DNA of 64,000 nt from Acidimicrobiia bacterium (GTDB taxonomy: Bacteria > Actinomycetota > Acidimicrobiia > Spongiisociales > ZC4RG35), in the NCBI GenBank assembly GCA_965215185.1, contig OZ244034.1, positions 1,874,244 to 1,938,243 on the forward strand. The letters run 5' to 3'. The translations under genes and the position numbers were made by a program. Every line of letters begins with the position of its first letter. The first letter of the stretch is position 1. Shown one piece after another: positions 6,254 to 54,177 of the stretch. Under the pieces are notes generated by a model. It ran no database searches and was not told where the DNA came from. It saw only the letters and a program-made list of their open reading frames with translations.

Positions 6254-7653
6254 GCCAGCCGGTTACCTTCCGCCGTCGCGCCATTGAAGAGATGGCCACT
6301 TCCAAACCCGCGGCGGTGGACCGGGCAGCGCGCCGGTTTACCGACAAACGCCAATGGGCGGTGAACGATTTCGCAGCCATGGAGGAAACCCGCGACCGGG
6401 GCCGGGAGATCCGCCTTCACACCCTGGCCAACCTGCACCGCTACCTCGACCAATTCGCCGACTCGGTGGAACGCGCCGGAGGGCAGGTGCTGTGGGCCGC
6501 CGACGCGGCTGAGGCCAACCAGCAGATCGCCGAGTTGATAGCCAGGAAAAAGGGTTCGCTGGTGATCAAATCCAAATCGATGGTCACCGAAGAACTCGGA
6601 CTCCTCCACCATCTGGAAAACGAGGGCCACACCGTGGTGGAGACCGATCTGGGAGAGTTCATCGTCCAGATCGCCAAGGACCATCCGTCCCACATCATCG
6701 CGCCGGTCATGCACCTCACCCGCCAGGACATCGGCGCCCTTTTCCAACAGGAACTGGGATTTCCCTATTCGGAGGACCCGGCTGATCTAACCCAGATGGC
6801 CCGCCGGCACCTACGACGATTTTTCCTCTCCGCCGATGTGGGGATCTCGGGAGTGAACATGGGAGTGGCCGAGACCGGATCGATAATCACCATCACCAAC
6901 GAGGGCAACGGCTGGCTGACCACCGCCGCGCCCCGGTTGCACATCGCGGTGATGGGCATGGAGCGCCTGGTTCCCACTATGAATGACGCGGCCACCATCG
7001 TGGAGATACTGGCTCGGTCGGCCACGGGTCAACGGCTGAGCGTCTACACCAATGTGGTGACCGGCCCGAGAAGACCGGGCGACCCGGACGGGCCGGACGA
7101 GATGGCGGTGGTGATCGTGGACAACGGGCGCAGCCTCGTGTTGGAAAGCGACGCCTCCGAGATCCTGGCCTGCATCCGGTGCGGCGCCTGCCTGAACGTC
7201 TGCCCTGTGTTCCGGGAGGTGGGGGGTCACGCCTACGGACAGGTGTATCCCGGTCCGGTGGGGGCGGTGCTGGCGCCCGGGCTGGCCGACTTCAAGGATC
7301 ATTTGGACCTGCCCTATGCCTCCAGCCTGTGCGGAGCGTGCCGGGAGGTATGCCCGGTGCGTATCGACATCCCCAAGCTCCTGGTCAACCAACGCGTTCG
7401 AGCCACCAAGGAAAACGATCCGTTCCGGTGGATGGGCCCGGGACTGGCCGTTTACCGCCAAGCCGGCAAGCGCCCGCTGCTGTGGAAATCGTTGCTGGCC
7501 GCCGGGCGAATGGCCGGGCGGGTAAAGAAAGAAGGCGAGTGGTTCCACCGCCTGCCCTTCCAAAGCAAAGGGTGGACCGACAGCCGCGACTTTCCCCCAC
7601 CGGCGAAACAGTCCTTCCGGCAATGGTGGAAAGAAAGCCGCGATGGAACGTAG
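6250..7653 (+). CDS. lutB: L-lactate utilization protein B (LUD domain plus 2x[4Fe-4S] binding)
   Basis: CIRCGACLNVCP and CGACREVCP ferredoxin motifs. LUD domain. 467 aa. Confidence 0.85.
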   Translation: MSQPVTFRRRAIEEMATSKPAAVDRAARRFTDKRQWAVNDFAAMEETRDRGREIRLHTLANLHRYLDQFADSVERAGGQVLWAADAAEANQQIAELIARKKGSLVIKSKSMVTEELGLLHHLENEGHTVVETDLGEFIVQIAKDHPSHIIAPVMHLTRQDIGALFQQELGFPYSEDPADLTQMARRHLRRFFLSADVGISGVNMGVAETGSIITITNEGNGWLTTAAPRLHIAVMGMERLVPTMNDAATIVEILARSATGQRLSVYTNVVTGPRRPGDPDGPDEMAVVIVDNGRSLVLESDASEILACIRCGACLNVCPVFREVGGHAYGQVYPGPVGAVLAPGLADFKDHLDLPYASSLCGACREVCPVRIDIPKLLVNQRVRATKENDPFRWMGPGLAVYRQAGKRPLLWKSLLAAGRMAGRVKKEGEWFHRLPFQSKGWTDSRDFPPPAKQSFRQWWKESRDGT

Positions 7654-8296
7654 CCAGTTCCTGAAGCGGATCGAACAGGCCCTCGGCTCCGATTCCCTGC
7701 CCGGGCTTCCCGCCCGCCATCCCGACCACCACCTCCCCCACCTGGAAGAGGTGGACCTGACCACTCATTTCATAGCCGCCTTCGAGCTGCTGGACGGGAT
7801 AGTCCATCACGGATCGCCTCTGGACGTGATCACCCGGATCATGGAAGACCGCGGAACCCGGGAGTACCTGGCCTGGGACCAGGAGCACCTTCCCAGCGAG
7901 GGCCTGTTAGACGCTCTGGGACAGAAGGGATACCGGCGGAAGGGAACCGTCCTGCCATCCGACCCCGATGGTCGTATCCCCCACCAGATGGGCTACATGG
8001 ACGCCGAGGTTGGGATCTCCGCGGCGATGGCCGCCCTGGCCGAGTCCGGCTCGGTGGTGGTGACTTCGGGACCCGGGCGTTCTCGTTTGGCCTCGGTGAT
8101 CCCCGCCGTTCACATAGTGCTGGTGCCCACCAGGCTGATCTTTCGCTCGCTATCCCATTGGGCGGCGCAGGTTGAATCACCCGATCAGTTGGCGAACATC
8201 ATGGTCATAACCGGACCCAGCCGCACCGGCGACATCGAACTCACCCTCACCAAAGCAGTGCACGGACCCGGCGACATCCACGCCGTTCTGCTGTAG
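7643..8296 (+). CDS. lutC: L-lactate utilization protein C (LUD domain)
   Basis: 217 aa. Overlaps the lutB stop. LUD/YkgG-like sequence. Confidence 0.75.
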   Translation: MERSQFLKRIEQALGSDSLPGLPARHPDHHLPHLEEVDLTTHFIAAFELLDGIVHHGSPLDVITRIMEDRGTREYLAWDQEHLPSEGLLDALGQKGYRRKGTVLPSDPDGRIPHQMGYMDAEVGISAAMAALAESGSVVVTSGPGRSRLASVIPAVHIVLVPTRLIFRSLSHWAAQVESPDQLANIMVITGPSRTGDIELTLTKAVHGPGDIHAVLL

Positions 8297-8334
8297 GCGC
8301 CACCCCGTCCTCCTCAAGCTCCCGGGGTGTTTCA

Positions 8335-8580
8335 TCATGACAGTTGAATAGCTATCGGCTTTAGGTCTTCACTTGGAATCAAGGAGAGACCCATGAGGTT
8401 GATAATGTCTTCCCCGATCCCTTGGACGATCATCTCCCCAGGTTCTATATCTGTAGGGCCGAATGCGACTTCGCCGCCAAAGTTGACATACGCCCTGCGA
8501 TAGAGATCGAAGCATTCATAGAGCACCTGATAGAGCTCTTTCGAAAAGCCTTCCTGCCCCCTGTAGTCGGCGCGACGTAG
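8335..8580 (-). pseudogene. possible orphan C-terminal gene fragment of low GC, adjacent to the IS
   Basis: Protein-like reverse-strand ORF (…LYECFDLYRRAYVNFGGEVAFGPTDIEPGEMIVQGIGEDIINLMGLSLIPSEDLKPIAIQLS*) with no start codon of its own. About 50% GC against about 67% in the surroundings. Abuts the element end at 8582. Confidence 0.25.
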
Positions 8581-8581
8581 A

Positions 8582-9986
8582 GGGACTTATATACCTAGGT
8601 TGACAGAGCGTCTAGGTGATACTGTTCTGCGGTGTCTGCCAGCATCTTCCGGCCTGAGCCGAAAGATGTCTTACAACAGAGATTTGTAGAGCGCACCGCG
8701 TCGGGAAACACGAGGTCATGTCCCACCCGACCCCAAGGATCCCAGGTGGGATAGTCTCGGGCGCATATGTTGATTGCAGCATTGTGGTCTCTGCACATGG
8801 TCAGTCCACACTGTTCGCACCGGAAGGTTCTCACGTTGAGGGGCATCTTTTGGTGATGCCCGCATCGGGAACAGTCGGTGGAGGTGTGGCGAGGGTTTAC
8901 CCCCGCATAGTGGACACCAGCTTTCGCGGCTTTGTGTTCCAGTATGAGATCGAAGGATCCCCAGCGTTGCTGTGACATCTGTTTGGAGAACAGCTTGGTT
9001 TTCAGCAGTCCGGCGATATTGAGCTTTTCGACAGCTATGCCGTCGTAGGCCTTGACCAGGCGGTCGGCCAGGCGGAAGTCCGACTGGATGGCCTGTTCCT
9101 GTAGGCGGCGGTGCTGTTTGGCGAGAGTGTTTGCGCTTCTTGATGCGAGACCGTGATCCCTTGACGGACCTGCTGAACCGGCGCTGAGCGCGCAACGCCT
9201 GTCGCAGATCCACGGTTGTGGGTGGTAGGTGTTCGCCGTCGGAAGTGACCAGGCGTGACTTGAGGCCCTTGTCCAAACCGACGGGATTGACAGGATCTGC
9301 CACCGGTGGGCGGTCAGGGTGCTTGATGACCGCGTGTATCTCGACTCGCAGAGGAGTGCGGGCCACTCGCAGTTCCACCAGCCGGCCGCTCTCCAACGCG
9401 GTAGTGAGGCGGTCGTGTTTGTCCTCGAACCGTATCTGCGGCACGCCCTTCACCTGTAGTCTCCACCACTTCTCGCTGTGGTTCTTTCTCTCTCCCGGAG
9501 CTTTGAGCATCGCGCGGTCAGCGTTCACAATCTCTATCGACTTCCACCGGTGACGCGGCTTGAAACGGGGAAACCCGGCCTTCTTGGAAGGGTCCTTACA
9601 TCTCTTATAAAAGGCCTGAATAGACCGGTCGAAGCGGCGCAACGTTCCGCGCCCCACTCGAAGGCTCAAACGCTGCCACTCAGGATGGTCCTTGCGTACA
9701 TCGGTGAACATCCGCAGACGGTCATAGTGAGACTGGTTCAGTTCTAGGGGAAGGGGTTCGTCGGGATGGTGTTCTTTCCACCACCGGTATGTGCCCTTCC
9801 ATGATTCCAGGCATGCGTTATACAACTCGCAACACTGCGCGAAGATGTCATCCAAACGACGGTGCGCCGAGCGGGAACAATGCCCTTTCAGCCGGATCGT
9901 CTGCACCCAAGGAACCATCATCTAAAAATATCCCACCCCTGCGAAAAAAGGGGTGGCTGGTTGTCAACCTAGGTATATAAGTCCCC
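8582..9986 (-). mobile_element. TnpB-only IS200/IS605-like element, copy B (near-intact), bounded by perfect 24-bp terminal inverted repeats
   Basis: 8582-8605 gggacttatatacctaggttgaca is the exact reverse complement of 9963-9986. tnpB stop lies 13 bp from one end and tnpB start 65 bp from the other. No target-site duplication detected. Confidence 0.8.
8595..9921 (-). pseudogene. tnpB: tnpB (OrfB_IS605 RNA-guided nuclease) with a single frameshift near 9115-9140; the only defect seen
   Basis: N-terminal ORF 9921-8716 (RRLDDIFAQCCELYNACLESWKG..., RuvC-I GLDKGL). In another frame, ADRLVKAYDGIAVEKLNIAGLLK gives the RuvC-II Glu. C-terminal ORF 8978-8595 has the zinc ribbon CSRCGH...CEQCG, RuvC-III DRDHNAAINI and a stop. 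Confidence 0.75.
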
Positions 9987-14585: not shown

Positions 14586-15500
14586 ATGCGTTCACACCAG
14601 GACTGGGACACCACCGCCTTTAACCTGCCCACCGTCGCCCCTCATCTCGGTCCCTTTCCCGGGCGCGACTTTCTGCGGACGCTCACCGACCAGCGCTTCG
14701 GGGCCCCCACCCGGGTGGAGTTGGCGGAGACCGACGATGGGCTGCTGGCCTTGGAGTGGGAGGAACAGACGGTGCGCATGGCGGGTCGAGCCTCTTTGAC
14801 CGACTATCACAGCCCGCGAGGCGCCTCGGTACCGGCGTTGGTGGCGCAGTGGTGGGAAAGCCAAGAAAAAGGCACGCATCTGGTTTGGGATTCTCTTCCC
14901 CATGCGGCCGCCCGAGCCGTGGAGGCGGGACTGAACCGGGCGGGGGCCAGTGCGGTCACCGAGCAGACCGAGGTGGCGGCAGTATTGCATCTGCCCCCCA
15001 CCTTCACAGAGTATTTGCAGATGGTGACCAAGAAGGAGCGGCACGAGATCCGTCGCAAAGCCAGACGCTACGACAAGGGTCTGGGAGAGGCGACGCTTCG
15101 CACTCGACATGGGCCCGGCTGGGAATTCGAAGAATTCGTTCGACTTCATAAACTGGCTAGCGGGCCCAAAGGACAGTTCATGGATGAGGAAACGACGCCG
15201 CTGTTCCGACAGTTAGTCGATCTTTCCGGTTGGAGGGTCGATGTGTTGGACACCGGGGACGGGCAAGCCGCCGCCTGTGTGTTCGGCTATTCCGACGAAG
15301 ACTGCTATTACCTGTACAACTCCTCCTTCGACCCGTCCCACTCCGCCCTCTCTCCCGGGGTGGTCTTGCTGACTTCTTTAATCGAAAGGGTGATCGGGGA
15401 GGGTCTAACCCGTTTCGATTTCCTGAAGGGAGACGAGACCTACAAACGTCGTCTCGGAGCCGTTTATCGCCCCCTCTACACGGTTACCAGTCGAAAATGA
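14586..15500 (+). CDS. GNAT-family acetyltransferase, CelD/BioF2-like (Acetyltransf_6)
   Basis: Start reassigned to MRSHQDW, immediately after the M23 stop. C-terminal FDFLKGDETYKRRLGA is a CelD-like motif. Stop overlaps the mshA start (ATGA). Confidence 0.55.
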   Translation: MRSHQDWDTTAFNLPTVAPHLGPFPGRDFLRTLTDQRFGAPTRVELAETDDGLLALEWEEQTVRMAGRASLTDYHSPRGASVPALVAQWWESQEKGTHLVWDSLPHAAARAVEAGLNRAGASAVTEQTEVAAVLHLPPTFTEYLQMVTKKERHEIRRKARRYDKGLGEATLRTRHGPGWEFEEFVRLHKLASGPKGQFMDEETTPLFRQLVDLSGWRVDVLDTGDGQAAACVFGYSDEDCYYLYNSSFDPSHSALSPGVVLLTSLIERVIGEGLTRFDFLKGDETYKRRLGAVYRPLYTVTSRK

Positions 15501-16717
15501 TCGCCCGGGTTGCCTTCGTCTCCATGCACACCTCCCCCCTTTTGGACCCGGGGGAAGGCGATGCGGGTGGGATGAACGTCTATCTTCATGAACTGGCGGC
15601 CACGATGGCCGCCCAAAGGGTACAGGTCCAGGTTTTCACCCGCAAGGACCATCCCGAACTGGCCGAGACAGTGCAGGTCGCCCCGGGCTATCAGGTCCAC
15701 CACTTGGAAGCCGGACCTCTGCGCCCACTGCCCATCGAAGCCCAGGTCCCGCATCTGGGGGAGTTCAGCAAGGCGTTGGTGGAGCGACTGGAAGCCGCGG
15801 CGGTCCCCCCCGATTTGGTTCACAGTCACTACTGGCTCTCGGGGTGGGCGGCCCTGGAAGCCAAGGAGCGATTGGGCATCCCGATGGCCAACTCTTTTCA
15901 CACCCTGGGCAGGGTGAAGGACATTACCCGACGGGCGGATCAATCCCCCTCCGACCCGGTGCGGATCGCCGCCGAACAGACCCTGATCGCCAGCGCCAAC
16001 TGTGTGGTGGCCTCCACCCCTTACGAGGCGGACGACCTTATGGATCACTACGGGGCCGATCCCACCAAGCTGTGCGTCTCCCCGCCAGGAGTGAACCGGA
16101 CTTATTTCCAGCCCGGAGACCGGTCCGAGGCCCGGTCGAGACTGGGTTTGGGAGAGGAGCCCCTGGCATTGTTCGTAGGAAGGATCCAGGCCCTGAAAGG
16201 ACCGGACGTGGCGGTGGCCTCGGTGGCGATGGCCCGCGATAGCCTGGAGAATCTCCGTCTGTTGATAGTGGGGGGACCGAGCGGACCCGACGGAGAGCGG
16301 GAAATGCAGGCCCTGCGCCGGGCCGCTTCTGACCTCGGACCCGACGCCGTCCTTTTCCACCCTCCGGTCGGACATAGCCGTCTCGCCGACTACTACCAGG
16401 CGGCGGATGTGCTGCTGGCCCCGTCCCGCAGCGAGTCCTTCGGACTGGTGGCCGCGGAAGCCCAAGCCTGCGGACTGCCGGTGGTGGCCGCTCGGAGGGG
16501 AGGGCTGCGGTACGTCGTGGAGGACGGAGGCTCGGGACTGCTGGTGGATGGCTGGGACCCGCAAGGGTACGCGGCGGCCATCTGCAAGGTGATCGGGGAC
16601 AACCAACTGCGCGCCTCGATGTCCGGGCGGGCGGTGGAATGGGCGCGCCAGTACTCCTGGCAGGCCACCTGCGACCGGCTTTTGGAGTTGTACCGAAGCG
16701 TGCTCTTCCACAGATGA
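15497..16717 (+). CDS. mshA: D-inositol-3-phosphate glycosyltransferase (mycothiol biosynthesis), GT4
   Basis: N-terminus MIARVAFVSMHTSPLLDPGEGDAGGMNVYLHELA matches the MshA signature. GT4 EX7E region at the C-terminus. ATGA overlap with the neighbours. Confidence 0.85.
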   Translation: MIARVAFVSMHTSPLLDPGEGDAGGMNVYLHELAATMAAQRVQVQVFTRKDHPELAETVQVAPGYQVHHLEAGPLRPLPIEAQVPHLGEFSKALVERLEAAAVPPDLVHSHYWLSGWAALEAKERLGIPMANSFHTLGRVKDITRRADQSPSDPVRIAAEQTLIASANCVVASTPYEADDLMDHYGADPTKLCVSPPGVNRTYFQPGDRSEARSRLGLGEEPLALFVGRIQALKGPDVAVASVAMARDSLENLRLLIVGGPSGPDGEREMQALRRAASDLGPDAVLFHPPVGHSRLADYYQAADVLLAPSRSESFGLVAAEAQACGLPVVAARRGGLRYVVEDGGSGLLVDGWDPQGYAAAICKVIGDNQLRASMSGRAVEWARQYSWQATCDRLLELYRSVLFHR

Positions 16718-17133
16718 GCCTTCTCGCCACCATCTTGGTTGAGGCCATCTCCTCGTGGGTGGATGATCCCGAAAGCGATGTCGAGTACTCCGAAAAGGTG
16801 GATGATCGCTGGGCGGTACGGATGCGACAGAGCGTCCGCTCGGCCACCACCGTCTGGTGGACCGTGGGCGACCGAAGCGTCATCGCCGAAGCGTATGTTC
16901 TCCCGGCCCCGCCCGCCAACCAGGTCAATGTGTACCGGCTGTGCCTGTTGCGCAACCACCGCATGTGGCGATGCCATTTCGCGCTCGACCGGGAGGGAGC
17001 GTTGGTGTTGACCGGCCGGCTGGCTGCCGCCGAGGTGAACCCCCACTCATTGGATCTGCTGTTGGGCGAAATGTACGAGGCCGTGGAACTCAGCTTCCGG
17101 CCGCTGGCGATGATGGCCTTTCGCAAAAACTGA
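16714..17133 (+). CDS. YbjN-like domain protein (Rv0487-like, conserved downstream of mshA)
   Basis: 139 aa. Start overlaps the mshA stop. Position is syntenic with actinobacterial mshA neighbours. Confidence 0.5.
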   Translation: MSLLATILVEAISSWVDDPESDVEYSEKVDDRWAVRMRQSVRSATTVWWTVGDRSVIAEAYVLPAPPANQVNVYRLCLLRNHRMWRCHFALDREGALVLTGRLAAAEVNPHSLDLLLGEMYEAVELSFRPLAMMAFRKN

Positions 17134-17416
17134 CCAAATCTGAGAACCGGGGATAATCCACAATCGCGAAAAGAACCCCCGAAAGGCTTGATTAGACCCA
17201 CCCAGCCGGTCCATCCTGTAAGCGGCCGGGCGGAAACCGGGCGTTTCGTCGAGCGTCACCTATAGGGAAGGCGGGATGACACCTAAAATCGCTCGCCCGC
17301 TCGGCCGCCAACGCCCCGATCGTGATCGTGATCGTGGGAGGCTTCAACAAGGATTGGGAAGTTAGACTTTGACGCATAAGGCTGAAAAGGAGCAACAACA
17401 CATAGACCTTGAAGCC

Positions 17417-18067
17417 ATGCAGCGGGAGATGTACCTGCTCCCCGAAGCAGCCCGCCTGCTTCGCATAAATACCACCACCCTGAAAAGATGGCTGGAAGGA
17501 GACGAGCGGCTCCCGCCCGTGATTCGTCCCCAAGCCACAGGATCCGACGCGGTGACCTGGGGAGAGTTTGTGGAAGCAGGTTTTCTGCGGGAATATCGTA
17601 GGTCCTTGAGCCTCCAGAGGATACGTCCCGCTATTGCGAAACTACGGGAAAAATTTGATGTGCCTTATCCCTTGGCGCATTACAAGCCCTTTATCGGACC
17701 AGGGCGCCATTTGACACTGGAGGCGCAACAGGAGGCACAAGTACCCCCAGATCTGTTCATCGTCTGGGAGATAGCAACAGGACAGTTGGCGCTCGCTGAT
17801 TCAGCCTTGGGCTACATCGAGAAAGTCGACTTTGCTGCAGAAGGCAGGCGTTGGGCAGAGCGTATTCATCCAGCGGGACGGGAATCCCCGGTAGTTATCG
17901 ATCCCGATTACTCGTTCGGAGCGCCAACCATCCGGGGCATCAAGACCTACATCATCACCGAACTCGTGGAAGCGGGTGAATCTCTGGAATTCGTAGCAGA
18001 GGGCTACTCGCTTTCGGTGGCTGAAATAGAAGCCGCGGTCGCTTATGAAGGGAAAGCCGCTGCCTAA
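17417..18067 (+). CDS. DUF433-domain protein with N-terminal HTH (putative antitoxin-like partner)
   Basis: C-terminal DPDYSFGAPTIRGIKTYIITELVEAGESLEFVAEGYSLSVAEIEAAVAY is DUF433-like. An HTH-like stretch (EAARLLRINTTTLKRWL). Low GC. Start could be the TTG at 17369. Confidence 0.55.
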   Translation: MQREMYLLPEAARLLRINTTTLKRWLEGDERLPPVIRPQATGSDAVTWGEFVEAGFLREYRRSLSLQRIRPAIAKLREKFDVPYPLAHYKPFIGPGRHLTLEAQQEAQVPPDLFIVWEIATGQLALADSALGYIEKVDFAAEGRRWAERIHPAGRESPVVIDPDYSFGAPTIRGIKTYIITELVEAGESLEFVAEGYSLSVAEIEAAVAYEGKAAA

Positions 18068-18095
18068 GAGAAAGCCGTCCACGGTCCGCTTCTAT

Positions 18096-18509
18096 ATGGA
18101 TGCTGACGTACTCGGTCTCGCCAAGGTCATTTCCAAAATCCGGCCTGATGTCACGTACCCGGGCGATCCGGGCGGGGAGATCAGAAAGCGGGTACGACCA
18201 CCCTGCCCGATCACCGATACTGAAACCACGGACCTCATATGGATCCCACAAGTCGCCCAGCGAGACTGGACCATCATCACCCGAGACCGGAATATTTCAC
18301 GAAAACCAGCGGAGCGCGATACCGTGATCGCTTACAACGCTAAGCTTTTTGTCTTTATTAAGCCCATCAATAAGAACTTTGATCTGTGGTCTCAACTGGA
18401 AGTCCTGATGACTCGATGGCGCGACATCGAACGACTCGGCGAAGAATCCGGGCCATTTATCTATAACGTCCATCGCACCACCGTCAATAGGGTCTGGCCA
18501 GCGGTTTAG
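18096..18509 (+). CDS. DUF5615 / PIN-like predicted nuclease (putative toxin partner of DUF433)
   Basis: MDADVLGLAKVI... start typical of DUF5615. Immediately downstream of the DUF433 gene. Low GC. Confidence 0.5.
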   Translation: MDADVLGLAKVISKIRPDVTYPGDPGGEIRKRVRPPCPITDTETTDLIWIPQVAQRDWTIITRDRNISRKPAERDTVIAYNAKLFVFIKPINKNFDLWSQLEVLMTRWRDIERLGEESGPFIYNVHRTTVNRVWPAV

Positions 18510-18555
18510 GTTATATCTTCGGGTCTCTATTTCTGTCCGGAGGTGGAATGGGCAG

Positions 18556-18650
18556 TCAGTACTCCTTATCCCTGAATCCCTGGACCTGCTGGTGGGAGAG
18601 ATCTACGAGGAGGTGAAGCTCAGCTTAAGGCCCTGACGATGATGGCCTTC
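18556..18650 (+). pseudogene. diverged remnant of the 3' end of the YbjN-like gene (duplicate of 17040-17133)
   Basis: Translates to LDLLVGEIYEEVKLSLRP* against the intact LDLLLGEMYEAVELSFRPLAMMAFRKN. About 80% nucleotide identity with a 1-bp deletion. Confidence 0.6.
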
Positions 18651-19097
18651 CCCGATTCGCGGATAGAGCGCCCCGAATGAGCTTGAACACCCCGTCCAAC
18701 CGCTGACATCCCGTCATAATCCTTCATCCTCGGCAGAGGCACTTCAACATAAACTCGGAGGCTAAAGGATGACAGGGAGTAACCCCCATGGATGAGGTAA
18801 CCGGTAGCGGGGAGGAGACAGCTGTCACTAAGAACGGTCGCCCGGTTTGGCTGGCGCCTTGCCGCAGAAAACCGGACTCTTTCTTGGGCCGCGACCGGGA
18901 CAATATTGGCATTCTGGGCGACACCATCAAGCCAGTGAATACGGAATGGGAGGCCGAGACCAACCCAGGCAGGGTGCTGAATCCTTGATCTTGCTGAATC
19001 TGGGTAGAGGCGGAGGACAGACCAGGCTTCACCTTTGGGTCGCCCGGGTTCTAGCCTGTGGAGTCTGCGGCCTTTATCCTGTTGATCAGCCAGACCC

Positions 19098-19940
19098 ATG
19101 AGCCTTCCCATCAACTTTCTCTCCGATTTTGGAACCGACGACGAATTCGTTGGCGTAGTTCACGGCGTTTTAGCCCGGATTGCTCCCCAGTCGCGGGTGA
19201 TCGACATCAACCATGGGATCGCGGCGGGGAGCGTACGGGCCGGCGCCCTTTCCCTGCTCCGCGCCGTTCAATACCTTCCCGCCGGAGTGACCCTGGCGGT
19301 GGTCGATCCCGGAGTGGGGACCGACCGCCGGGCCTTGGCCGTGGAAACCCTTGAGATGACTTTCGTCGGACCTGACAACGGCCTCCTCTCACCCGCGGTG
19401 GCCATGATGGGAGGAGCCCTTCAGATGGTCTCGATTGAAAACCCCGACTATCGCCTGCCGGGCGCCGGCAACACCTTCTGGGGACGGGATGTCTTTGCTC
19501 CCGCCGCCGGGTCGTTGGCGGCGGGAGAAGCGCGCCTGGCTGACCTTGGCCCTTCGCTCGGACCCCATGAAGTCACTCCCCTGCTACTGCCTCTGTCGGA
19601 AATAACCGCCGGCCGGGTGAGCGGTGAAGCCTGGTGGGTGGACACCTACGGCAACGTCCAAACCAACATCTCCCCAGACGACCTGCAGGTCGCCGGCCTG
19701 GAGACCTGCTCGGAGCTTGCGGTGCGATTGGGCGCCTCCGTCCACCACATTCGGATGGCAGAGACCTACGCCCAGGTGGGCAGGGGCGAGATGCTGATCC
19801 ATGTCGACTCGGCGGGGATGCTGGCCTTGGCGATGAGAGGAGGGCGGGCCTGTGACCGGCTGAGCCTCACCGAGGGGAGGTCAGTGGTCATGGAGAGAAC
19901 ATCAGTCCCCACAGTTGCACCACCGCCGCCACCACGATGA
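19098..19940 (+). CDS. S-adenosyl-L-methionine hydroxide adenosyltransferase (SAM hydrolase, fluorinase/DUF62 family)
   Basis: 280 aa. Motifs FLSDFGTDDEFVGVVHGV and WWVDTYGNVQTN characteristic of the SAM hydroxide adenosyltransferase fold. Confidence 0.75.
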   Translation: MSLPINFLSDFGTDDEFVGVVHGVLARIAPQSRVIDINHGIAAGSVRAGALSLLRAVQYLPAGVTLAVVDPGVGTDRRALAVETLEMTFVGPDNGLLSPAVAMMGGALQMVSIENPDYRLPGAGNTFWGRDVFAPAAGSLAAGEARLADLGPSLGPHEVTPLLLPLSEITAGRVSGEAWWVDTYGNVQTNISPDDLQVAGLETCSELAVRLGASVHHIRMAETYAQVGRGEMLIHVDSAGMLALAMRGGRACDRLSLTEGRSVVMERTSVPTVAPPPPPR

Positions 19941-31364: not shown

Positions 31365-32650
31365 TCCGGCGAGTCTTGGGAACTGCGGCGTAGCGAGTCG
31401 AGGATGTCGACGCCGGTAACAGCGTCTATCTGTTCGGTTAGGGCCACCAAAGCAGCGGGGAGTTGGGCAACCAGGCCGGGGATCCCTCCTCCACCGCTGC
31501 CCCGGTCGCTGTTGGTGTCCACCACGGCCACCCGGTCGATGTTGACCCCCTGCACGGTGGCGACGATCTTGTCTATGAGTTCGGGAAGCATGTTCAACAC
31601 CAGCACGTGATGCCCGTCCTGGCCCGCCGCCTGGTATTGGTCGGTCAGGAGTTTGAACACTTCCACTTGGGCTCTACCGTCTTCAATGATGCTCGCCGCT
31701 TCGGCCCGGGCTCGTAGCTGTTGGGCTTCCAAGTCGGCTCGGGCGGGAACCACCACCGCCGCCTCCACGCGTCGTGTCTCCAGCTCGATGCGCTGGCCTT
31801 CCAACTCCTGACTGGCCACGACTCTGGCGACATCTCCCGCCACCAGAGCTTCCGCCTCACGTGCGTTAGAGACGGCCTCCAGTTCGGCGGTACGTACCCG
31901 CAGGCCGTTGTTTTCCACCACGATCGCCCTGTCCGCCTCAAGGCCAGCGACCTGTCCCACTTGCCGGGAGGCAGCCTCGGCCTGTTCCGCTTCGGCTTTG
32001 CGTTCTGCTTCCACCACCCGGGCATTTCGAATCACCTCGGCGGTGAGAAGGCGCCCCACCGATGTCAGATAATGGACATCGTCGGTGACGTTCTGGATCT
32101 TGAGGACATCCAGTTCCAGGCCCAAGGTCTTGATGTCGTCGTCGGCCTCGTCGATCAACTGATGGGAGAATTTGAGCCGATCTTCGTTCACCTCTTCCGG
32201 CGACAGGGTGGCTAGGACGCCCCTCAGGTTGGCTTCCAGGGTCTCCTTGGCGATCTGACCGATCTGGGCGCTGGAACGCCCCAGGAATCTCTCGGCAGCG
32301 TTCTCCAGCAGCCCTTCTCGGCTCGAAACCTTGACGTTGGCAATGCCCGCCACATTGAGAGGAATAGTCCCCCGCGAATAGGCGTTGGTCACCGCAACCT
32401 CCAACGGAATGGTGTTCAGACTCATCCACTGAACATTCTCGATGAGGGGAATCCGGATCGTCCGTCCTCCCTGCAGCAGGCGGTATCCCACCTTTCGCCC
32501 ATCACTCAGCGCCCGTTTCCGTCCGGAAATGACCGCTACCCGGTTGGGTGGGCAAATAATTATCAACGACTTAATGATGAAGATCAGGATCAACAACACC
32601 ACGGCCAGGCCGACACCGGCTAACACCGGTAAACTTAAGTTATCACTCAT
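31352..32650 (-). CDS. flotillin-like SPFH/band-7 domain protein
   Basis: N-terminal TM, SPFH domain, extended Ala/Glu-rich coiled-coil. 432 aa. Confidence 0.8.
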   Translation of the reverse strand: MSDNLSLPVLAGVGLAVVLLILIFIIKSLIIICPPNRVAVISGRKRALSDGRKVGYRLLQGGRTIRIPLIENVQWMSLNTIPLEVAVTNAYSRGTIPLNVAGIANVKVSSREGLLENAAERFLGRSSAQIGQIAKETLEANLRGVLATLSPEEVNEDRLKFSHQLIDEADDDIKTLGLELDVLKIQNVTDDVHYLTSVGRLLTAEVIRNARVVEAERKAEAEQAEAASRQVGQVAGLEADRAIVVENNGLRVRTAELEAVSNAREAEALVAGDVARVVASQELEGQRIELETRRVEAAVVVPARADLEAQQLRARAEAASIIEDGRAQVEVFKLLTDQYQAAGQDGHHVLVLNMLPELIDKIVATVQGVNIDRVAVVDTNSDRGSGGGGIPGLVAQLPAALVALTEQIDAVTGVDILDSLRRSSQDSPEDEG

Positions 32651-33153
32651 TAACTACTTCCTCTTTCTTTTTCTTGCCTTGCGACGAGAGCCACCGCGCC
32701 GTCCACCTCCACGATGGTGACCCTCTCGCCTTTCTTAATCAGATCCTCCCGGTTGGCGGGTGAGGCGCTGATCCTATGGCGCGCCCCGGCCGCGTCGACA
32801 ACTACCTGCCCCCTGTGTTCGGTGGACACTCCCAACACCACTACGGCTGTTGACCCCTCAAGATCTGCATTGGTAACCTCGCTGGACGCTTCGGTGCGGC
32901 GCAGCCAACCAAACAGAGCGTTGTGGAAAGATGCTCCCAGAACACCCACTCCGGCGGCGATCAATCCCCCGGAAAGAGCGGAAAGGCTCACCCAGACCGT
33001 GATAAGACCCGCTAAACCAAAAAACGCCGCTCCAAAAGAGACAGCGCTGAACGAGATCCATGAAAAGAAACCTCCACCCGAACCGGTATCAGAATCCCCC
33101 CCCAATTCGCCTCCGAAGGCAAAAATCAGCAACAACGGCAAACCGACCGCCAT
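32650..33153 (-). CDS. NfeD-like membrane protein (flotillin-associated, OB-fold C-terminus)
   Basis: Two TMs plus a beta-rich C-terminal domain. Overlaps the flotillin start, the typical NfeD-flotillin operon arrangement. Confidence 0.65.
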   Translation of the reverse strand: MAVGLPLLLIFAFGGELGGDSDTGSGGGFFSWISFSAVSFGAAFFGLAGLITVWVSLSALSGGLIAAGVGVLGASFHNALFGWLRRTEASSEVTNADLEGSTAVVVLGVSTEHRGQVVVDAAGARHRISASPANREDLIKKGERVTIVEVDGAVALVARQEKERGSS

Positions 33154-33240
33154 CGCGAAAATATATAAGAAAAGTACGGCCGCTCCCTACCTAGCTTCAG
33201 CCTTAACCCAGACTAGTCGTCCACCCGTGGTTAGGTCTAA

Positions 33241-33340
33241 TAGACGGGCGAATCGTTTGCCGGCGATGACCAGGGCCATCAGCGTCACCACCAACGGGGC
33301 GTCTATGAAAACCACGGGGAAGCCGTCGCACTGGCAGCAA
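33241..33340 (-). pseudogene. diverged remnant of the 3' end of the ABC permease gene (duplicate of 34396-34500)
   Basis: Reverse-strand translation QCDGFPVVFIDAPLVVTLMALVIAGKRFARLLDLTTGG against the intact gene QGNGLPVQITDALPFVVTLLALVVARKRFARLLDLSTAG*. Same frame, substitutions mostly conservative. Confidence 0.6.
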
Positions 33341-33360
33341 CACCCGGCACTCGGCTAGGG

Positions 33361-34197
33361 CTAAAAGACCGGCTTACCGCGATCCTCCAAACAACGCGCA
33401 CCATCGTCGTTGGTGTCCAACGCCACATCCCGTGCCACGTCTACAATGAACGCTTCCTGGCGTGTGACGTCCTCCAGTGCGAACTTGGTCATCACCGCTA
33501 TGGCATAGGGTCGGTTCCTCAGAAACACAATTCCAGCATCGCAGCGGACCCGTTCCATGCCGCCCGATTTGTTCGCAACTACCAAGTCGGACGGTACCGC
33601 CCGATTCAACGGCGCCGATTTGGGCTTGCCGATGATACGCAGGACCTGCTCCGCCACTTTGGATGACGGCTTACCTTGATACAGCATCTCCAGCATCGTG
33701 ACAAGTTCGTTCGGCGTCGAAACATTCTCGTCACCCCTGTGTATAGCCTCGCTGTCCATCATCTTGCGCCGCAACTTTGTGGCTGTCAGCCCCATATCAC
33801 CCAACAACCTGTTGGTTGCCTCCATGCCGGCCCAATCTATGCACATGTTCGTTGCAGTGTTGTCCGACACAACGATCATCAGGATGGCGATATCCAGCAC
33901 TGACAACTCGGGCTCACCCTCCATATAGTGGATTACGCCACTACCTGTTCCGCACATCTGCGGCTTGATTCTGACGCGCTCATTGAGGTCAATCTCACCC
34001 CTCTCGCCACGGCTCAATAGCTGTGTCAAGATGTGTATTTTGATAGTGGATGCGGTGGGGAACTCCTCGCTACCACGTACGGACACTGCGTCTCCACGTT
34101 TCAGATCCAGCACCGAAATACCCGCTACTCCCGCGAACTTCTCAATCTTGTGAGTTAACCGTTCCTCCAAACGCTCCCAAAGCCTCCTGTTGCTCAT
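33361..34197 (-). CDS. class A beta-lactamase-related serine hydrolase, no signal peptide, low GC
   Basis: STIK (SxxK), SDN and KSG motifs. 278 aa. GC about 48-52% against about 67% flanks. Confidence 0.7.
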   Translation of the reverse strand: MSNRRLWERLEERLTHKIEKFAGVAGISVLDLKRGDAVSVRGSEEFPTASTIKIHILTQLLSRGERGEIDLNERVRIKPQMCGTGSGVIHYMEGEPELSVLDIAILMIVVSDNTATNMCIDWAGMEATNRLLGDMGLTATKLRRKMMDSEAIHRGDENVSTPNELVTMLEMLYQGKPSSKVAEQVLRIIGKPKSAPLNRAVPSDLVVANKSGGMERVRCDAGIVFLRNRPYAIAVMTKFALEDVTRQEAFIVDVARDVALDTNDDGARCLEDRGKPVF

Positions 34198-34395
34198 TCC
34201 ACTGCTCCTTAGGTTCTCAACTCGGTGAAGTATCCCATTTGAAATCCTCTGTATTCACGTTGCGCATGTTAAGACTTTCAGAATTACGAACCTCGACAGA
34301 ATCGGGGTCAGCGTATTGTTCACTCGCACCTAAGCCAAACCCCCCGTTTCTCCCCGCCTTGCGATGAGGCAGACGCCGACCAAACCGCAACCTAA

Positions 34396-35313
34396 TCAAC
34401 CGGCGGTAGACAGGTCGAGCAGGCGGGCGAATCGCTTGCGGGCGACCACCAGAGCCAGCAGGGTCACCACGAAGGGAAGGGCGTCGGTTATTTGCACCGG
34501 CAGACCGTTGCCCTGGAAGCGGAAACCAAGCGCCTCGGCCAGAGCGAACAGGGCGCAGGCGCCAACCACACCCGCGGGATGGGCCCGGCCCAGCATCACC
34601 GCCACCACCGCTACCCAACCCCGGCCGCTCGACATGTTCTCCGCGAACTGCACCACGTTGCCCAATGAGAGTTGAGCCCCGGCCATCCCGGCCAGGGCGC
34701 CGGACGCCAGAACCGCTCCGTACTTGTAGACGGTGGGACTCACCCCGAGAGTCTCCGCAGCCAAGGGCCGCTCACCCACCCCCCGGAGACGCAAGCCGAT
34801 CGGAGTGCGGAAAAAGAAAACCCACAGCGCTGGCACCAGCAACAAAGCGAGAAAGGTGAGAACCGTGTTGTCAAAGAGCACCGGCCCGACCCAGGGGATC
34901 TGCGACAGTCCTGGAATGGCGATCCTGTCCAATCTATCTATCCGGGGATGCTGGAATACCCCGCGAACGTCGAAGATTTGCGGAAGCAGGAAACCGGTAA
35001 GACCCATGGCTAGCAGGTTGAGCGAGATTCCCAATACGATCGGATCACCCCGACGAGTAACCGTGCCATAGGCCAACGCCAGGGAGACCGCCATCCCGGC
35101 CAGTATCCCGAAGGCTATCCCCACGGTGGAACTCAGAGCCAGATAGGAGCCGGCCACCGCCGCGAAGGCGCCAGCCAGCATTATCCCCTCCAAGGCGATC
35201 TGAAAAACCCCGGCCCGCTCGCAGATCATGCCACCCAGCGCCGCCAACAGGATGGGAACCATCGCCCGGGTGGCCGAGTCGAACAAGGCTGTGTCGAAAA
35301 GCTGCTCGAACAT
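34396..35313 (-). CDS. ABC transporter permease (BMP/nucleoside family)
   Basis: 305 aa, 8-10 TM, branched-chain/sugar-type permease fold. In an operon with a second permease, an ATPase and a Bmp lipoprotein. Confidence 0.8.
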   Translation of the reverse strand: MFEQLFDTALFDSATRAMVPILLAALGGMICERAGVFQIALEGIMLAGAFAAVAGSYLALSSTVGIAFGILAGMAVSLALAYGTVTRRGDPIVLGISLNLLAMGLTGFLLPQIFDVRGVFQHPRIDRLDRIAIPGLSQIPWVGPVLFDNTVLTFLALLLVPALWVFFFRTPIGLRLRGVGERPLAAETLGVSPTVYKYGAVLASGALAGMAGAQLSLGNVVQFAENMSSGRGWVAVVAVMLGRAHPAGVVGACALFALAEALGFRFQGNGLPVQITDALPFVVTLLALVVARKRFARLLDLSTAG

Positions 35314-51296: not shown

Positions 51297-51837
51297 GGAC
51301 CAGCCCGGGTTTTGCCGTGGTAGCTTCCCGCCAGCGAATCGTAGGCGCCCTGCGGTGTGGGTATTCCAAGTCCTTCCCGAAACGGTGCCTTGCTTTTGTT
51401 GCCACTGACGGCGGTACTCGGGCCCTCTCCATGCGGTAGCCCACGCGGGGTTCGGTAATGATGTAGGTGGGGTTCTTGGCGTCGTCACCCAACTTGCGCC
51501 GCAGATTCTTCACGATGGTACGCACCATTCGCGGATCGCCCGGTTTCTTCAGCCCCCAGACCCGTTGCAGCAGGTGATCGGAACTCAGCACCCGGCCGGC
51601 ATTGATGGAAAGCTCAATGAGCAGGTGATACTCGGTAGCCGTGAGTCGGATAGAGCGATCGGCCAAGGTCACCCTGTGTTCCACAGATTCGATCAACAGA
51701 TCTCCCCGTACAAATGAACCGAGGGAAGCGGCGTCGTCGGGCGCTTTGCGTTTACGCAGGGCCACCCCGATTCTGGCCACAAGTTCGGTCGGCGAGAACG
51801 GTTTGACCACATAATCGGTTGGGACCAGTCTCTTCAA
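51268..51837 (-). pseudogene. truncated OmpR-family response regulator: winged-helix DNA-binding domain only, receiver domain missing, C-terminal read-through
   Basis: Begins inside the end of a receiver domain (DYVVKPFSPTELVARIGVALRK). Trans_reg_C domain ends at ...EPRVGYRMERA, then a about 50-aa aberrant extension. Confidence 0.5.
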
Positions 51838-51934
51838 GGACCGAGGCCAACCCCACCTCCCGATGAGCCGTTGGCGGGCAGATACAGTGACGGCTGACTT
51901 GGAGCGTCAGGTTTTGAAGAACGGGAAGAGCGCT

Positions 51935-52165
51935 TTAGGACACCAACTCCGCAAGGCGCCTTTGGACCGTGGCTTGGTCGTCGGGCTCAACCGGGTTGGG
52001 AAGCTCTTTTAGCTGCGGCACGATCAACCCACGGAGAGCCTGAGCCTCCTGGGGAGTGAGGTCTGAGCCCGCCACGACATCCTCGGTGCCCCACATGACA
52101 GCCAGACGGAATCCATAGTCGGCCACCGCCCGGTTGATGATCTCCAAAAGAGCCTGCTGGGACAT
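51935..52165 (-). CDS. small hypothetical protein (76 aa)
   Basis: Protein-like composition. Immediately downstream of the SDR gene on the same strand. Confidence 0.3.
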   Translation of the reverse strand: MSQQALLEIINRAVADYGFRLAVMWGTEDVVAGSDLTPQEAQALRGLIVPQLKELPNPVEPDDQATVQRRLAELVS

Positions 52166-52195
52166 AATTCCTTCTCCTTCTCCCTCTTCGTCGTC

Positions 52196-52945
52196 CTACA
52201 GCCGACCGCCGTCGATCTTGAAAGCAGCGCCTGTGATGTAGGAGGACTCTTCGGAGGCCAGAAACAGCATGAGGTTGGCGATGTCCTGGGGAGTCCCCAC
52301 CCGCCCCAGGGCGTTGCGTGAAGAGATCCGCTCAAACTCCTCGGAGCTGCCGGTACTGCCCCATGCCTGGGGGGTGTCGACGGACCCCGGGACGATGACG
52401 TTGCAGCGTACTCCCTGGGGAGCGTACTGGGCGCTGGTGGTCAGGGTGATCTGGATTACGCCCGCCTTACTAACGCCGTAGGGGACGGCATGGGGGGTGG
52501 GGTTCAACCCGGCGCCCGAGGAGACGTTGACTATGGCGCCCCCGCTCCCAATCATGTGAGGGATGGCATATTTGGTGCACAGAAACACCCCCCGTAGGTT
52601 GGTGTTGAGGGTCAGGTCCCAGACCAACTCCGAAACCTCTGCCAGTGGCGGCGTCCGGATGAGGACCCCGGCGTTGTTCACCAGCACATCCAGCTTCCCA
52701 AACCGCTGGACCGTCTGCTCCACCATGTTGCTCACCTGGGCTGCCTTGGAGACGTCAGTTTCGACGAAAAAGGCATCACCGCCCATCTCGTTCACCATCG
52801 CCACCGTTTTCCGGCTCTCCGGCGCGTTGCGATCAGCTACCGCCACCTGGGCGCCTTGGCGAGCAAAGAGGAGAGAGGCAGCCCGGCCTATGCCAGTGGC
52901 GCCACCGGTGATAATCGCTACTTTGTCTTGGAGACGGCCTGTCAT
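52196..52945 (-). CDS. short-chain dehydrogenase/reductase (SDR), FabG-like
   Basis: Start at MTGRLQDKVAIITGGATGIG. NNAG. YGVSK catalytic motif. Confidence 0.75.
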   Translation of the reverse strand: MTGRLQDKVAIITGGATGIGRAASLLFARQGAQVAVADRNAPESRKTVAMVNEMGGDAFFVETDVSKAAQVSNMVEQTVQRFGKLDVLVNNAGVLIRTPPLAEVSELVWDLTLNTNLRGVFLCTKYAIPHMIGSGGAIVNVSSGAGLNPTPHAVPYGVSKAGVIQITLTTSAQYAPQGVRCNVIVPGSVDTPQAWGSTGSSEEFERISSRNALGRVGTPQDIANLMLFLASEESSYITGAAFKIDGGRL

Positions 52946-53258
52946 CGCTCCTCCTTGAGGCGCTCCCAATATACCCGTTGCACCGCATTGCACCCTGCGT
53001 GCTCCCCTATTACTTCCCAAACTGTCCTACCGAGAATCGGAGGATCAGACCAGGACCAAGAAATCTGGATTTGGATCTGTTTTTTCGCAGTGACATTTGC
53101 GGGCATTCACAAACCGGGGATTATGGCCTTTTCTGCCCTGTCGTCGGCGGGAGAGATCATGCGCTTTGTGACCGGGAGCACCATCAAGGGAAATCGGGAC
53201 ACGATAGGCATCCTTCCCATTAACCTGGATAATCCTTGAGGCAGGCTCGACGCATGAG

Positions 53259-54059: not shown

Positions 54060-54177
54060 AGAGCAAAGCCGCAGACCAGGGTTGTATCTTGGCTTCCATG
54101 GAGATTCCCGCGGACATCACCCCGCCTGTTTGGCGTCTTCCCCCATGTTGTGGGACTTGCCGTGAGGGCAACCGCCG

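Follow-up and report, generated by a model that had tools for sequence, protein, structure and literature searches.

How did a diverged second copy of the 3′ end of a ybjN-like gene come to lie on the far side of a small islet of toxin–antitoxin-type genes? The initial annotation of the window (the whole stretch analysed here, 64,000 nt in length) took the arrangement for an integrase-type islet aimed at the 3′ end of ybjN, which arrived with its own version of that end (attL) and displaced the original (attR), with the integrase subsequently lost. The reading has some appeal: diverged direct repeats of the ybjN 3′ end lie on either side of low-GC cargo, and the two ends are different alleles. 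The comparison with related genomes presented below leads to another account, which is probably the correct one as a whole. An accessory toxin–antitoxin block of ~1.7 kb and a fossil of an older version of the locus lie together at a hot spot, where they would have been joined by non-site-specific recombination, and the block was later exchanged between genomes through flanking homology.

Organization and composition of the locus

The features of the locus are itemized in Table 1. The left flank comprises mshA and ybjN, a synteny that is kept across the Actinomycetota; the ybjN start overlaps the mshA stop in an ATGA at 16714. The end of ybjN was correctly placed at 17133. Its 139-aa product (P0001) has identical copies on four other contigs. 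A segment of ~36 nt at the 3′ end of the gene is found in the 139-aa alleles, and is missing both from the 147-aa alleles (L088, L094 and L095) and from the remnant downstream. The right flank is a SAM hydroxide adenosyltransferase (SAM_HAT)-family gene, for which the NCBIfam matches fall under the curated cut-off. None of the DUF433, PIN_10, phd′ and ybjN proteins falls in a named NCBIfam family.

Table 1. Features of the ybjN–SAM_HAT locus, in window coordinates
Feature	Position	Strand	Basis or remark
mshA-like GT4 glycosyltransferase gene	15497..16717	+	Pfam Glycos_transf_1/Glyco_transf_4; source of the mshA′ scrap
Resident ybjN-like gene, 139-aa allele	16714..17133	+	PF10722, E 2.9e-10
~36-nt segment with stop codon, 139-aa alleles only	17121..17157	+	Alignments
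Spacer block B	17158..17210	+	Alignments: homologous to the C-terminal coding tail of 147-aa alleles
Conserved non-coding element R, left homology arm	17211..17301	+	nhmmer
Exchangeable accessory block, limits at recombination breakpoints	17297..19020	+	Three-way alignment L091/L087/window; sliding identity
HTH-DUF433 antitoxin-like gene (Rv2018/VapB45-like), intact	17369..18067	+	PF04255
PIN_10 toxin-like gene, intact	18096..18509	+	PF18478; alignment with L092 homologue
mshA′ scrap (fragment of second mshA copy)	18516..18566	+	Similarity score against shuffles
ybjN′ remnant, 147-aa-type allele	18570..18686	+	Alignments: last ~95 nt plus longer tail
Decayed second copy of spacer B and element R	18687..18780	+	Alignments
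phd/YefM-type antitoxin remnant (phd′)	18788..18988	+	Amino acid and DNA identity to phd of relatives
Conserved spacer 5′ of SAM_HAT gene, right homology arm	19020..19097	+	Alignments
SAM_HAT-family gene, right core flank	19098..19940	+	PF01887 and PF20257

The cargo had been placed directly after the ybjN stop. This is not the case, for 17134 to ~17300 is conserved native intergenic DNA that is also present in genomes with an empty site. The native spacer (B, R and F, ~165–200 nt) separates the ybjN stop from the cargo junction, which counts against an insertion targeted to the end of the gene. Between ybjN and SAM_HAT (17134–19097) the GC content is 55.9%, compared with 61.8% for the window and 63–66% for the flanking genes; it is therefore low, but the initial value of ~50% is reached only locally, at 18200–18500. 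GC3 is 0.57–0.62 in the cassette and 0.70–0.81 in core genes. The composition of the DUF433/PIN_10 module is foreign.

No tRNA or tmRNA was found in a scan of the whole 64-kb window, so the site is not tRNA-linked. Promoter and terminator scans at the locus gave nothing above chance, and an Rfam scan of 16500–19500 at E ≤ 1, which includes element R, returned no match. Neither a tyrosine nor a serine recombinase is encoded in 17134–19097 or at any of 13 homologous loci, in agreement with the initial statement that no integrase remains, and contrary to an origin by integrase.

A predicted VapBC45-like toxin–antitoxin pair

The two cargo genes are arranged with the antitoxin first and the toxin second. 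The PIN_10 reading frame also opens at an ATG at 18045, which would overlap the antitoxin gene by 23 nt; the start at 18096, 28 nt from the antitoxin gene, agrees with the L092 homologue. The antitoxin-like protein matches PF04255 (DUF433) over residues 175–226 (34.8 bits against a cut-off of 23.6, E 1.4e-8). With phmmer it matches PDB 5AF3 (Rv2018) over its full length (query 19–221, chain 15–233, E 1.1e-9), and it has the Rv2018-type architecture of N-terminal HTH, linker and C-terminal DUF433, with the HTH_66 match weak and under the cut-off. The toxin-like protein matches PIN_10 (PF18478) with 40.1 bits against a cut-off of 26.2, over profile positions 36–82 of 84 only. PIN_10 was its sole Pfam match at E ≤ 10. 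The pair had been annotated as DUF433 and DUF5615; the first assignment holds and the second is replaced by PIN_10. The association itself is of a recognized toxin–antitoxin type, as proposed (PMC5499597, PMC5175181).

The closest characterized counterpart is VapBC45 of Mycobacterium tuberculosis, where experiment has identified Rv2019 as a growth-inhibiting RNase toxin that is neutralized by the antitoxin Rv2018 (PMC5175181). In both systems the antitoxin is ~230 aa long, with its HTH at the N terminus and DUF433 at the C terminus, and is followed by a small protein of the PIN_10 family, which was defined together with its DUF433 partners (PMC5499597). The similarity between Rv2018 and the window antitoxin is low (E 1e-9), and the toxins were compared through the Pfam profile alone, in part (positions 36–82 of 84). 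VapBC45 is known by activity, whereas the pair in the window, from an uncultured Acidimicrobiia-like host, is known from sequence. Synechocystis VapBC10, with toxin–antitoxin function proven experimentally, also combines a DUF433-domain (COG2442) antitoxin with a PIN-like toxin (PMC3834315). VapB10 differs in being a short, single-domain DUF433 protein that activates rather than represses its own operon, and the VapBC10 toxin is of another PIN family than that of the window. The predicted DUF433–DUF5615 (COG2442–COG4634) pairs share the antitoxin domain. DUF5615 and PIN_10 toxins both fall in the Mut7-C group of PIN-like domains (PMC5499597), but the window toxin has no Pfam match to DUF5615 and belongs to the sister family PIN_10; its identity to a plasmid protein annotated as DUF5615 is 25%.

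Of 16 distant metagenome loci, 13 keep the two genes together, as does a Mycobacterium plasmid, and dN/dS of the DUF433 gene is 0.16 (window vs L091). An exact-sequence look-up of the DUF433 protein gave no record; a 100% cluster exists for it, and no relative was found in the viral contigs searched. Taken together, the block carries an intact predicted type II toxin–antitoxin pair of the VapBC45 (Rv2018/Rv2019) kind. By homology the PIN_10 protein would have toxin activity, presumably as an RNase of the Mut7-C group, and membership of the family suggests a role as an addiction or stress module. The islet is an ordinary VapBC45-like one, and no new class of system is implied.

A hot spot between ybjN and SAM_HAT

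The comparison set comprises the 13 homologous loci, from at least nine distinct lineages. The closest species representatives in a scan of GTDB genomes with mshA are 54% identical, too distant for a test of the empty site, and closer relatives were reached through a search with the YbjN protein and contig look-ups. Empty spacers, for which the initial annotation had suggested a search, are found in L088, L095 and L097; these are expected for an integrase-borne islet, as for any other kind of insertion. The spacer contains phd alone in L094, phd-vapC in L087, two IS110 copies in L090, DUF433 with phd-vapC in L096, and DUF433-PIN_10 with phd-vapC in L092. The same islet, also sought elsewhere, occurs with the window-type architecture in L001–L003, L093 and L091; some frameshifts in L001–L003 may be long-read errors. 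Cargo of the phd-vapC or IS110 type comes without a ybjN′ duplicate, which again speaks against integrase-mediated capture of the gene end. The only transposases at the 13 loci are IS110 (L090) and IS30 (L093).

The PIN_10 toxin gene has been destroyed independently in several lineages. L091 has lost it by deletion, an IS30 interrupts it in L093, L096 lacks it, and scraps only are present in L087 and L090. Among these uncultured Acidimicrobiia-like actinobacteria, which belong to one genus, the variety of cargo makes the ybjN–SAM_HAT spacer a hot spot of small selfish modules.

The contig is metagenome-derived and strain variants co-occur in such samples, so that an assembly fusing the locus as it stands in two different strains might produce the duplicated end. 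However, the same architecture and junction occur in six independent contigs from different samples and at least two species (the window, L001–L003, L093 and L091), and the likelihood of such an assembly artefact is negligible.

The fossil downstream of the cassette

The initial annotation reported a copy of the ybjN end of ~80% identity beyond the cargo. The copy is genuine: 17051–17120 and 18581–18649 are 80% identical with one 1-nt gap, and the local score is 73 compared with 20.6 ± 2.3 for shuffled sequences (z ~22). Its extent has to be revised, both for ybjN′ itself (Table 1) and for the mshA′, spacer′ and phd′ sequences that accompany it. The longest exact run between the two copies is just 13 nt (CGATGATGGCCTT), a point against integrase targeting, though a short identical core may be present.

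As described initially, the copy translates to a truncated C-terminus, reading SLDLLVGEIYEEVKLSLRP and a stop; with the 1-nt deletion repaired it continues as LTMMAFPDSRIERPE to its stop. The frame shifts at ~18633, and a TGA at 18678 ends it prematurely. The sequence reads …MMAFPDSRIERPE before the stop, as 147-aa proteins do, and lacks the ~36-nt segment common to all 139-aa alleles. With the resident ends of L091, L087 and L090 it shares 75–77% identity, and with that of the window only 68%. On these alignments ybjN′ is assigned to a different allele (147-aa type) from the resident 139-aa gene, rather than to a recent self-copy. L094, which has a 147-aa allele and phd only, was ruled out as the source of the fossil, being just 80% identical.

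Preceding ybjN′ is a scrap of mshA (18516/18539–18566, score 36–41 compared with 17 ± 2 for shuffles), which maps ~59–110 nt before the mshA stop. Its position is the same in six genomes, and it is kept in the remnants of L091 and L093. Following ybjN′, 18653–18693 matches the spacer of L087 and L090, and spacer copies reach ~18780. From the phd′ open reading frame the first ~21 residues are missing, and it gives no Pfam match; its product has 58–64% amino acid identity to the intact Phd of L094, L092 and L087, and its DNA is 76% identical to phd of L087. Neither vapC nor another toxin gene follows it. Both mshA sequence and the spacer downstream of ybjN are represented in the fossil, so the duplication originally covered ~600 nt or more, far beyond the size of an att site. 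The fossil is a remnant of an older version of the locus, with the order mshA′–ybjN′ (147-aa allele)–spacer′–phd′. No genome among the homologous loci sampled has an undeleted second copy of mshA–ybjN.

Exchange of the block between species

The flanks of L091 are 92–96% identical to those of L087, while its block is window-like, the fossil included. Between the window and L091 the DUF433 and PIN_10 sequences are 91 and 93% identical and the remnant region 79–87%, compared with ~80% for core genes; dS is 0.25 in the cassette and 0.53–0.67 in core genes, and is alike on both flanks of the block. Alignment of L091, L087 and the window places sharp breakpoints at ~17297 and ~19020, in the conserved flanks. 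The window-like block in L091, the sharp breakpoints and the cassette dS below that of the core together show that the block moves by homologous recombination: the whole block, with its fossil, moved between species by a double crossover in flanks R/F and Z. As part of the islet, the remnant moves along with it and is not necessarily an end that was displaced from the resident gene. The initial idea of a foreign islet plus a displaced allele is right in part: the DNA is accessory and foreign and the second ybjN end is another allele, but its displacement from the gene of this genome is not supported.

The breakpoints lie outside ybjN, a further point against integrase targeting of its 3′ end. 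Islands that target tRNA genes or gene 3′ ends resemble the locus in that a diverged duplicate of the adjacent gene's 3′ end lies beyond the cargo. They differ in that the locus has no recombinase and no exact repeat core longer than 13 nt, its insertion lies outside the gene, and the duplicated segment is far above att size. A site-specific origin with later loss of the integrase is therefore very unlikely.

Element R and repeats within single genomes

A search with nhmmer detected element R in the window and in all relatives, as a single copy except in L092 and L096, which have additional ones. The element contains the invariant motif AGGGAAGGCGGGATG[GA]C[GA]CC. In an RNA consensus fold of ten copies one pair of 16 covaries, and a structured RNA is not supported. 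A small ORF starting at an ATG inside R (MAPE.../MTPK...) was considered and rejected, as neither its length nor its sequence is conserved past the fourth codon in the alignments.

Two genomes carry spacer repeats around their cassettes, of 66 nt and 98.5% identity in L092 and of 160 nt and 97.5% identity in L096, both ending at …GGGATGGCGCC. The order in L092 is R1–DUF433/PIN_10–R2–phd/vapC–R3′, with all repeats ending on one base. It might be proposed from this that R (~90 nt, including an invariant 20-mer) does more than passively offer homology, and serves as a dedicated site of recombination or expression at the borders of small cassettes, which would be captured, duplicated and exchanged without an integrase. 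Circles might, for example, excise and re-insert by R × R recombination, and the mshA′–ybjN′ fossil would be an oversized version of the flank duplication. An integron-like cassette array was considered as well; there is no integrase, and R has no convincing conserved pairing. A dedicated role for R is quite improbable.

Origin of the arrangement

Near-identical spacer repeats around the cassettes of L092 and L096 make it clear that duplication or gene conversion within a genome also happens here, and this could have generated a fossil of the window type in a 147-aa-type ancestor. A tandem duplication of the mshA 3′ end, ybjN and spacer, perhaps during or after insertion of the cassette, would then have been followed by decay of one copy, and the mismatch of alleles would stem from a later move of the block into 139-aa genomes. 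The recent repeats are of exactly this spacer, and the demonstrated transfer of the block between species makes the mismatch compatible with such a history. Against this, no relative has two copies of the ybjN end without cargo between them, the sampled 147-aa-type genomes all lack DUF433-PIN_10, and an extra step is needed (duplication plus insertion between the copies) in place of a single recombinational join. This origin is rather unlikely, though it is a more serious contender than the others considered. The absence of a cargo-free double copy, like the non-native GC of the toxin–antitoxin genes, is in keeping with the initial proposal of an inserted islet.

In the preferred account, the duplication would stem from non-site-specific recombination between two versions of the locus: one contributed a stretch that stops just past the PIN_10 stop codon, and the other a copy that starts inside mshA and carries phd. 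This may have occurred by one homologous and one illegitimate crossover, or by insertion of a circle through a single crossover. An internal deletion of ~400 nt, loss of vapC and point decay would have followed. Chromosomal hot spots between core genes are filled by homologous recombination in their flanks, and homology-facilitated illegitimate recombination is also known. Like other such hot spots, the locus has small cargo that varies from species to species while the two core genes around it stay the same, and the breakpoints of exchange fall in conserved flanking DNA; the junction just after the PIN_10 stop is free of homology, as in homology-facilitated illegitimate recombination. It differs from the usual hot spot in that the cargo brings a fossil of the adjacent core genes with it, which is unusual but can be explained as a by-product.

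Implications

The locus provides a well-resolved natural example of how chromosomal toxin–antitoxin modules accumulate at one intergenic hot spot, are exchanged between species through flank homology, and then decay, the toxin being the first part to go. When a diverged duplicate of a gene end lies next to an islet, this does not prove insertion by an integrase, because the islet can bring such a fossil with it. This calls for caution in methods of island calling that rely on repeated gene ends. The block is a clear but ordinary example of genome flux, brought about by ordinary recombination without an integrase.

Organization and composition of the locus

The mshA–ybjN pairing is widely conserved in Actinomycetota; the nearest species-level genome representatives are Acidimicrobiia MAGs, with an mshA identity of only ~54%. 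The region between ybjN and the SAM hydroxide adenosyltransferase-family (SAM_HAT) gene is atypical in composition, as first noted, at a less extreme value than that given in the initial annotation. The GC content of 17134-19097 is 55.9%, compared with 61.8% for the window and 63–66% for neighbouring genes, placing it among the lowest-GC 2-kb windows of the 64 kb. GC3 is 0.57 for the DUF433 gene and 0.62 for the PIN-like gene, against 0.70–0.81 for core genes. Two other 2-kb stretches with islet-like GC (0.56–0.58) lie at ~32000-34500 (Band_7/NfeD genes and a class A beta-lactamase-family gene) and ~51500-54500 (an SDR gene, a response-regulator-like gene, an unassigned 266-aa ORF and an AhpC/TSA-like gene).

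Features of the window
Feature	Position	Strand	Remarks
IS605-type tnpB element	8582-9984		OrfB_IS605/Cas12f1-like
M23 peptidase		+	first gene in order around the islet
GNAT-type acetyltransferase		+	between M23 peptidase and mshA-like gene
mshA-like GT4 glycosyltransferase	15497-16717	+	
YbjN-family gene	16714-17133	+	139 aa; start overlaps mshA stop
Block B	17158-17210		
Element R	17211-17301		
HTH-DUF433 ORF	17369-18067	+	
PIN-like ORF	18045 or 18096 to 18509	+	
mshA fragment (remnant)	18516/18539-18566		30–50 nt; score 36–41 vs 17 ± 2 in shuffles
ybjN′ (remnant)	18570-18686		last ~95 nt plus longer tail
Copy of B and decayed R (remnant)	to ~18780		
66-aa ORF, phd/YefM-type antitoxin gene (remnant)	18788-18988	+	first ~21 codons missing; no toxin gene behind
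Conserved right flank	19020-19097		~80 nt upstream of SAM_HAT
SAM_HAT-family gene	19098-19940	+	

The spacer between ybjN and SAM_HAT

Four other metagenome contigs of this species (L001–L004) encode an identical YbjN, and all of them carry the islet. Over the equivalent of 17290-18360, small indels set L001–L003 apart from the window; the single-base frameshifts in these contigs may be sequencing errors, since long-read coverage is only 4–6x. The tnpB element is also found in L002 and L003 and is precisely missing from L001; the window copy is frameshifted ~235 codons in, relative to L003.

About 30 homologues of YbjN (74–86% identity), many of them on megabase contigs, were recovered by protein search, and their contexts were compared together with those of the closest DUF433 homologues. 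In 13 loci the flanks are collinear and the ybjN–SAM_HAT spacer is highly variable. It is empty in L088, L095 and L097, and contains phd only (L094), phd–vapC (L085–L087), two IS110 copies (L090), DUF433–PIN_10 with phd–vapC (L092), or DUF433 with phd–vapC and without PIN_10 (L096). Two loci resemble the window, with PIN_10 damaged by IS30 in L093 and deleted in L091. The comparison of related genomes proposed initially thus gives a clear answer: there are empty sites, and no genome carries a pair of ybjN ends with nothing inserted in between. The foreign origin originally proposed holds as well.

The two IS110-family transposase elements of L090 are in tandem (6944-9250), directly following R and a scrap of PIN_10. 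L092 and L096, both from sample ERZ24894577, are 93.6% identical from the left flank through DUF433 and 85.7% identical from R2 rightwards, a step that marks another recombination mosaic at this spot.

The toxin–antitoxin cargo

The 232-aa HTH-DUF433 protein is similar along its whole length to the M. tuberculosis antitoxin Rv2018 (PDB 5AF3, E = 1.1e-9), itself a DUF433 protein. Its partner matches PIN_10 (PF18478, 40.1 bits), and not the DUF5615 family to which it had been assigned, for which there is no match even at E ≤ 10. PIN_10 is defined as a PIN-like family of the Mut7-C group, predicted toxins with DUF433 partners (PMC5499597). Rv2019 is growth-inhibitory in E. coli and M. smegmatis and cleaves rRNA and mRNA; Rv2018 neutralises it (PMC5175181). 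A DUF433–PIN pair of Synechocystis is a toxin–antitoxin system by experiment (PMC3834315). The DUF433 and PIN_10 genes stay together in 13 of 16 distant metagenome loci, where they never adjoin ybjN or SAM_HAT, and the pair is also borne by a Mycobacterium plasmid; no relatives were found in viral contigs. The likeness to Rv2018 and this pairing support the toxin–antitoxin nature predicted initially. Judged from sequence, the islet would be a VapBC45-like module at a recombination hot spot, and not a novel integrative element.

Both genes are intact in the window. PIN_10 has been lost repeatedly elsewhere, being deleted, disrupted or absent in L091, L093 and L096, respectively, and surviving only as scraps in L087 and L090; in L002 the DUF433 gene has lost 358 nt by deletion. 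Chromosomal toxin–antitoxin modules usually decay in this way. The scraps (L087 7297-7354 and L090 6623-6667) are ~80% identical to window 18184-18227 and lie in loci otherwise without the cassette, which suggests a long-standing presence of the cassette here. The IS30-like element of L093 (HTH_38 and rve; 6748-7977, equivalent to window 18262-18516) is inserted 5–8 nt after the PIN_10 stop with a TAT duplication, and the middle of PIN_10 is replaced by a scrap of an IS30 transposase C-terminus (RPRKTLNWKTP...).

Two alleles of ybjN and the anatomy of the remnant

The repeat of the ybjN 3′ end is borne out: 17051-17120 and 18581-18649 are 80% identical with one 1-nt gap, with a local score of 73 compared with 20.6 ± 2.3 for shuffled sequence. 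The second end translates as SLDLLVGEIYEEVKLSLRP before a stop; with its 1-nt deletion mended it goes on as LTMMAFPDSRIERPE to a stop.

The genus has two ybjN allele types, of 139 and 147 aa (window 17121-17157 and 18650-18686). All 139-aa alleles (window, L087, L090–L093, L096 and L097) share a segment of 34–41 nt that directly follows ...GATGATGGCCTT and supplies the stop codon. In the DNA it comes after ...GGCCTT[C/T], and in L090 it is flanked by TTC at both ends. The 147-aa alleles (L088, L094 and L095) lack the segment and extend through block B (...MMAFSDPRKERPQKA); in the 139-aa alleles this former C-terminal coding tail persists as spacer. The remnant also lacks the segment, with exactly matching boundaries, and reads ...MMAFPDSRIERPE to a stop. 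Over ~150 shared positions its identity to the resident ybjN end is 75–77% for L091, L087 and L090, and just 68% for the window itself. These boundaries and identities show that the two copies are different alleles, as the initial annotation held, and not a recent self-duplication.

The remnant starts 7 nt past the PIN_10 stop and is much larger than 90 bp of ybjN. Its mshA fragment maps 59 nt before the mshA stop, at one place in six genomes, and a gap equivalent to ~400 nt separates it from ybjN′. The truncated Phd has 58–64% protein identity to the intact Phd of L094, L092 and L087. The remnant junctions are identical in L091 and L093. With pieces of mshA, ybjN, B, R and phd, the remnant is thus the fossil of a complete older version of the locus. 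Both the accessory islet and the gene-end fossil within it are genuine.

Block exchange and origin of the duplication

The cargo does not start at the ybjN stop as proposed at first. The first ~165 nt comprise B and R, which are found in every relative, empty sites included. The core flanks of L091 are L087-like (92–96% identity), and between R and the region upstream of SAM_HAT it carries a window-type block. Compared with the window, L091 has ~80% DNA identity in core genes (dS 0.53–0.67), 91% in DUF433 (dS 0.25, dN/dS 0.16), 93% in PIN_10 (of which L091 keeps only the first 38%) and 79–87% in the non-coding remnant region, a neutral distance that corresponds closely to the cassette dS. In a three-way alignment L091 turns from L087-like to window-like at the left arm R/F (~17297), and back at ~19020. 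These switch points show that the exchange unit is 17297-19020, fossil included, moved by homologous recombination with crossovers in the conserved flanks. Since the fossil lies inside this unit, the ybjN end in it is not necessarily the one displaced from the gene of this genome, as the initial annotation had it.

Homology is lacking at the join directly after the PIN_10 stop and present on the opposite side of the duplicated segment, a pattern consistent with recombination having joined two versions of the locus, a 139-aa type with DUF433–PIN_10 and a 147-aa type with phd. Such a join might have arisen by one homologous and one illegitimate crossover or by insertion of a circle through a single crossover, and would have been followed by internal deletion and loss of vapC. 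Near-identical in-genome spacer repeats surround the cassette in L092 (66 nt at 98.5%) and L096 (160 nt at 97.5%), both finishing at ...GGGATGGCGCC, with a third partial copy after vapC in L092, and a later block transfer would mask the original partner allele anyway; duplication within the genome of a 147-aa-type ancestor is thus a less probable alternative origin of the second ybjN end. The integrase-mediated insertion first proposed is unlikely: none of the 13 loci has a recombinase, the cargo is inserted outside ybjN, the duplicated segment far exceeds an att site, and no ybjN′ duplicate accompanies other cargo at this spot.

Element R

R is a conserved non-coding element of ~90 nt, located downstream of ybjN in all relatives and containing an invariant 20-mer, AGGGAAGGCGGGATG[GA]C[GA]CC. 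Neither an Rfam match nor convincing covariation was found for it. The window has a single copy; R is repeated at the cassette boundaries of L092 (5825-5890, 7138-7203 and 7963-7978) and L096 (6404-6562 and 7354-7513), all repeats finishing at one and the same base. R, which bounds the cassettes, could serve as a promoter or leader, or as a recombination site.
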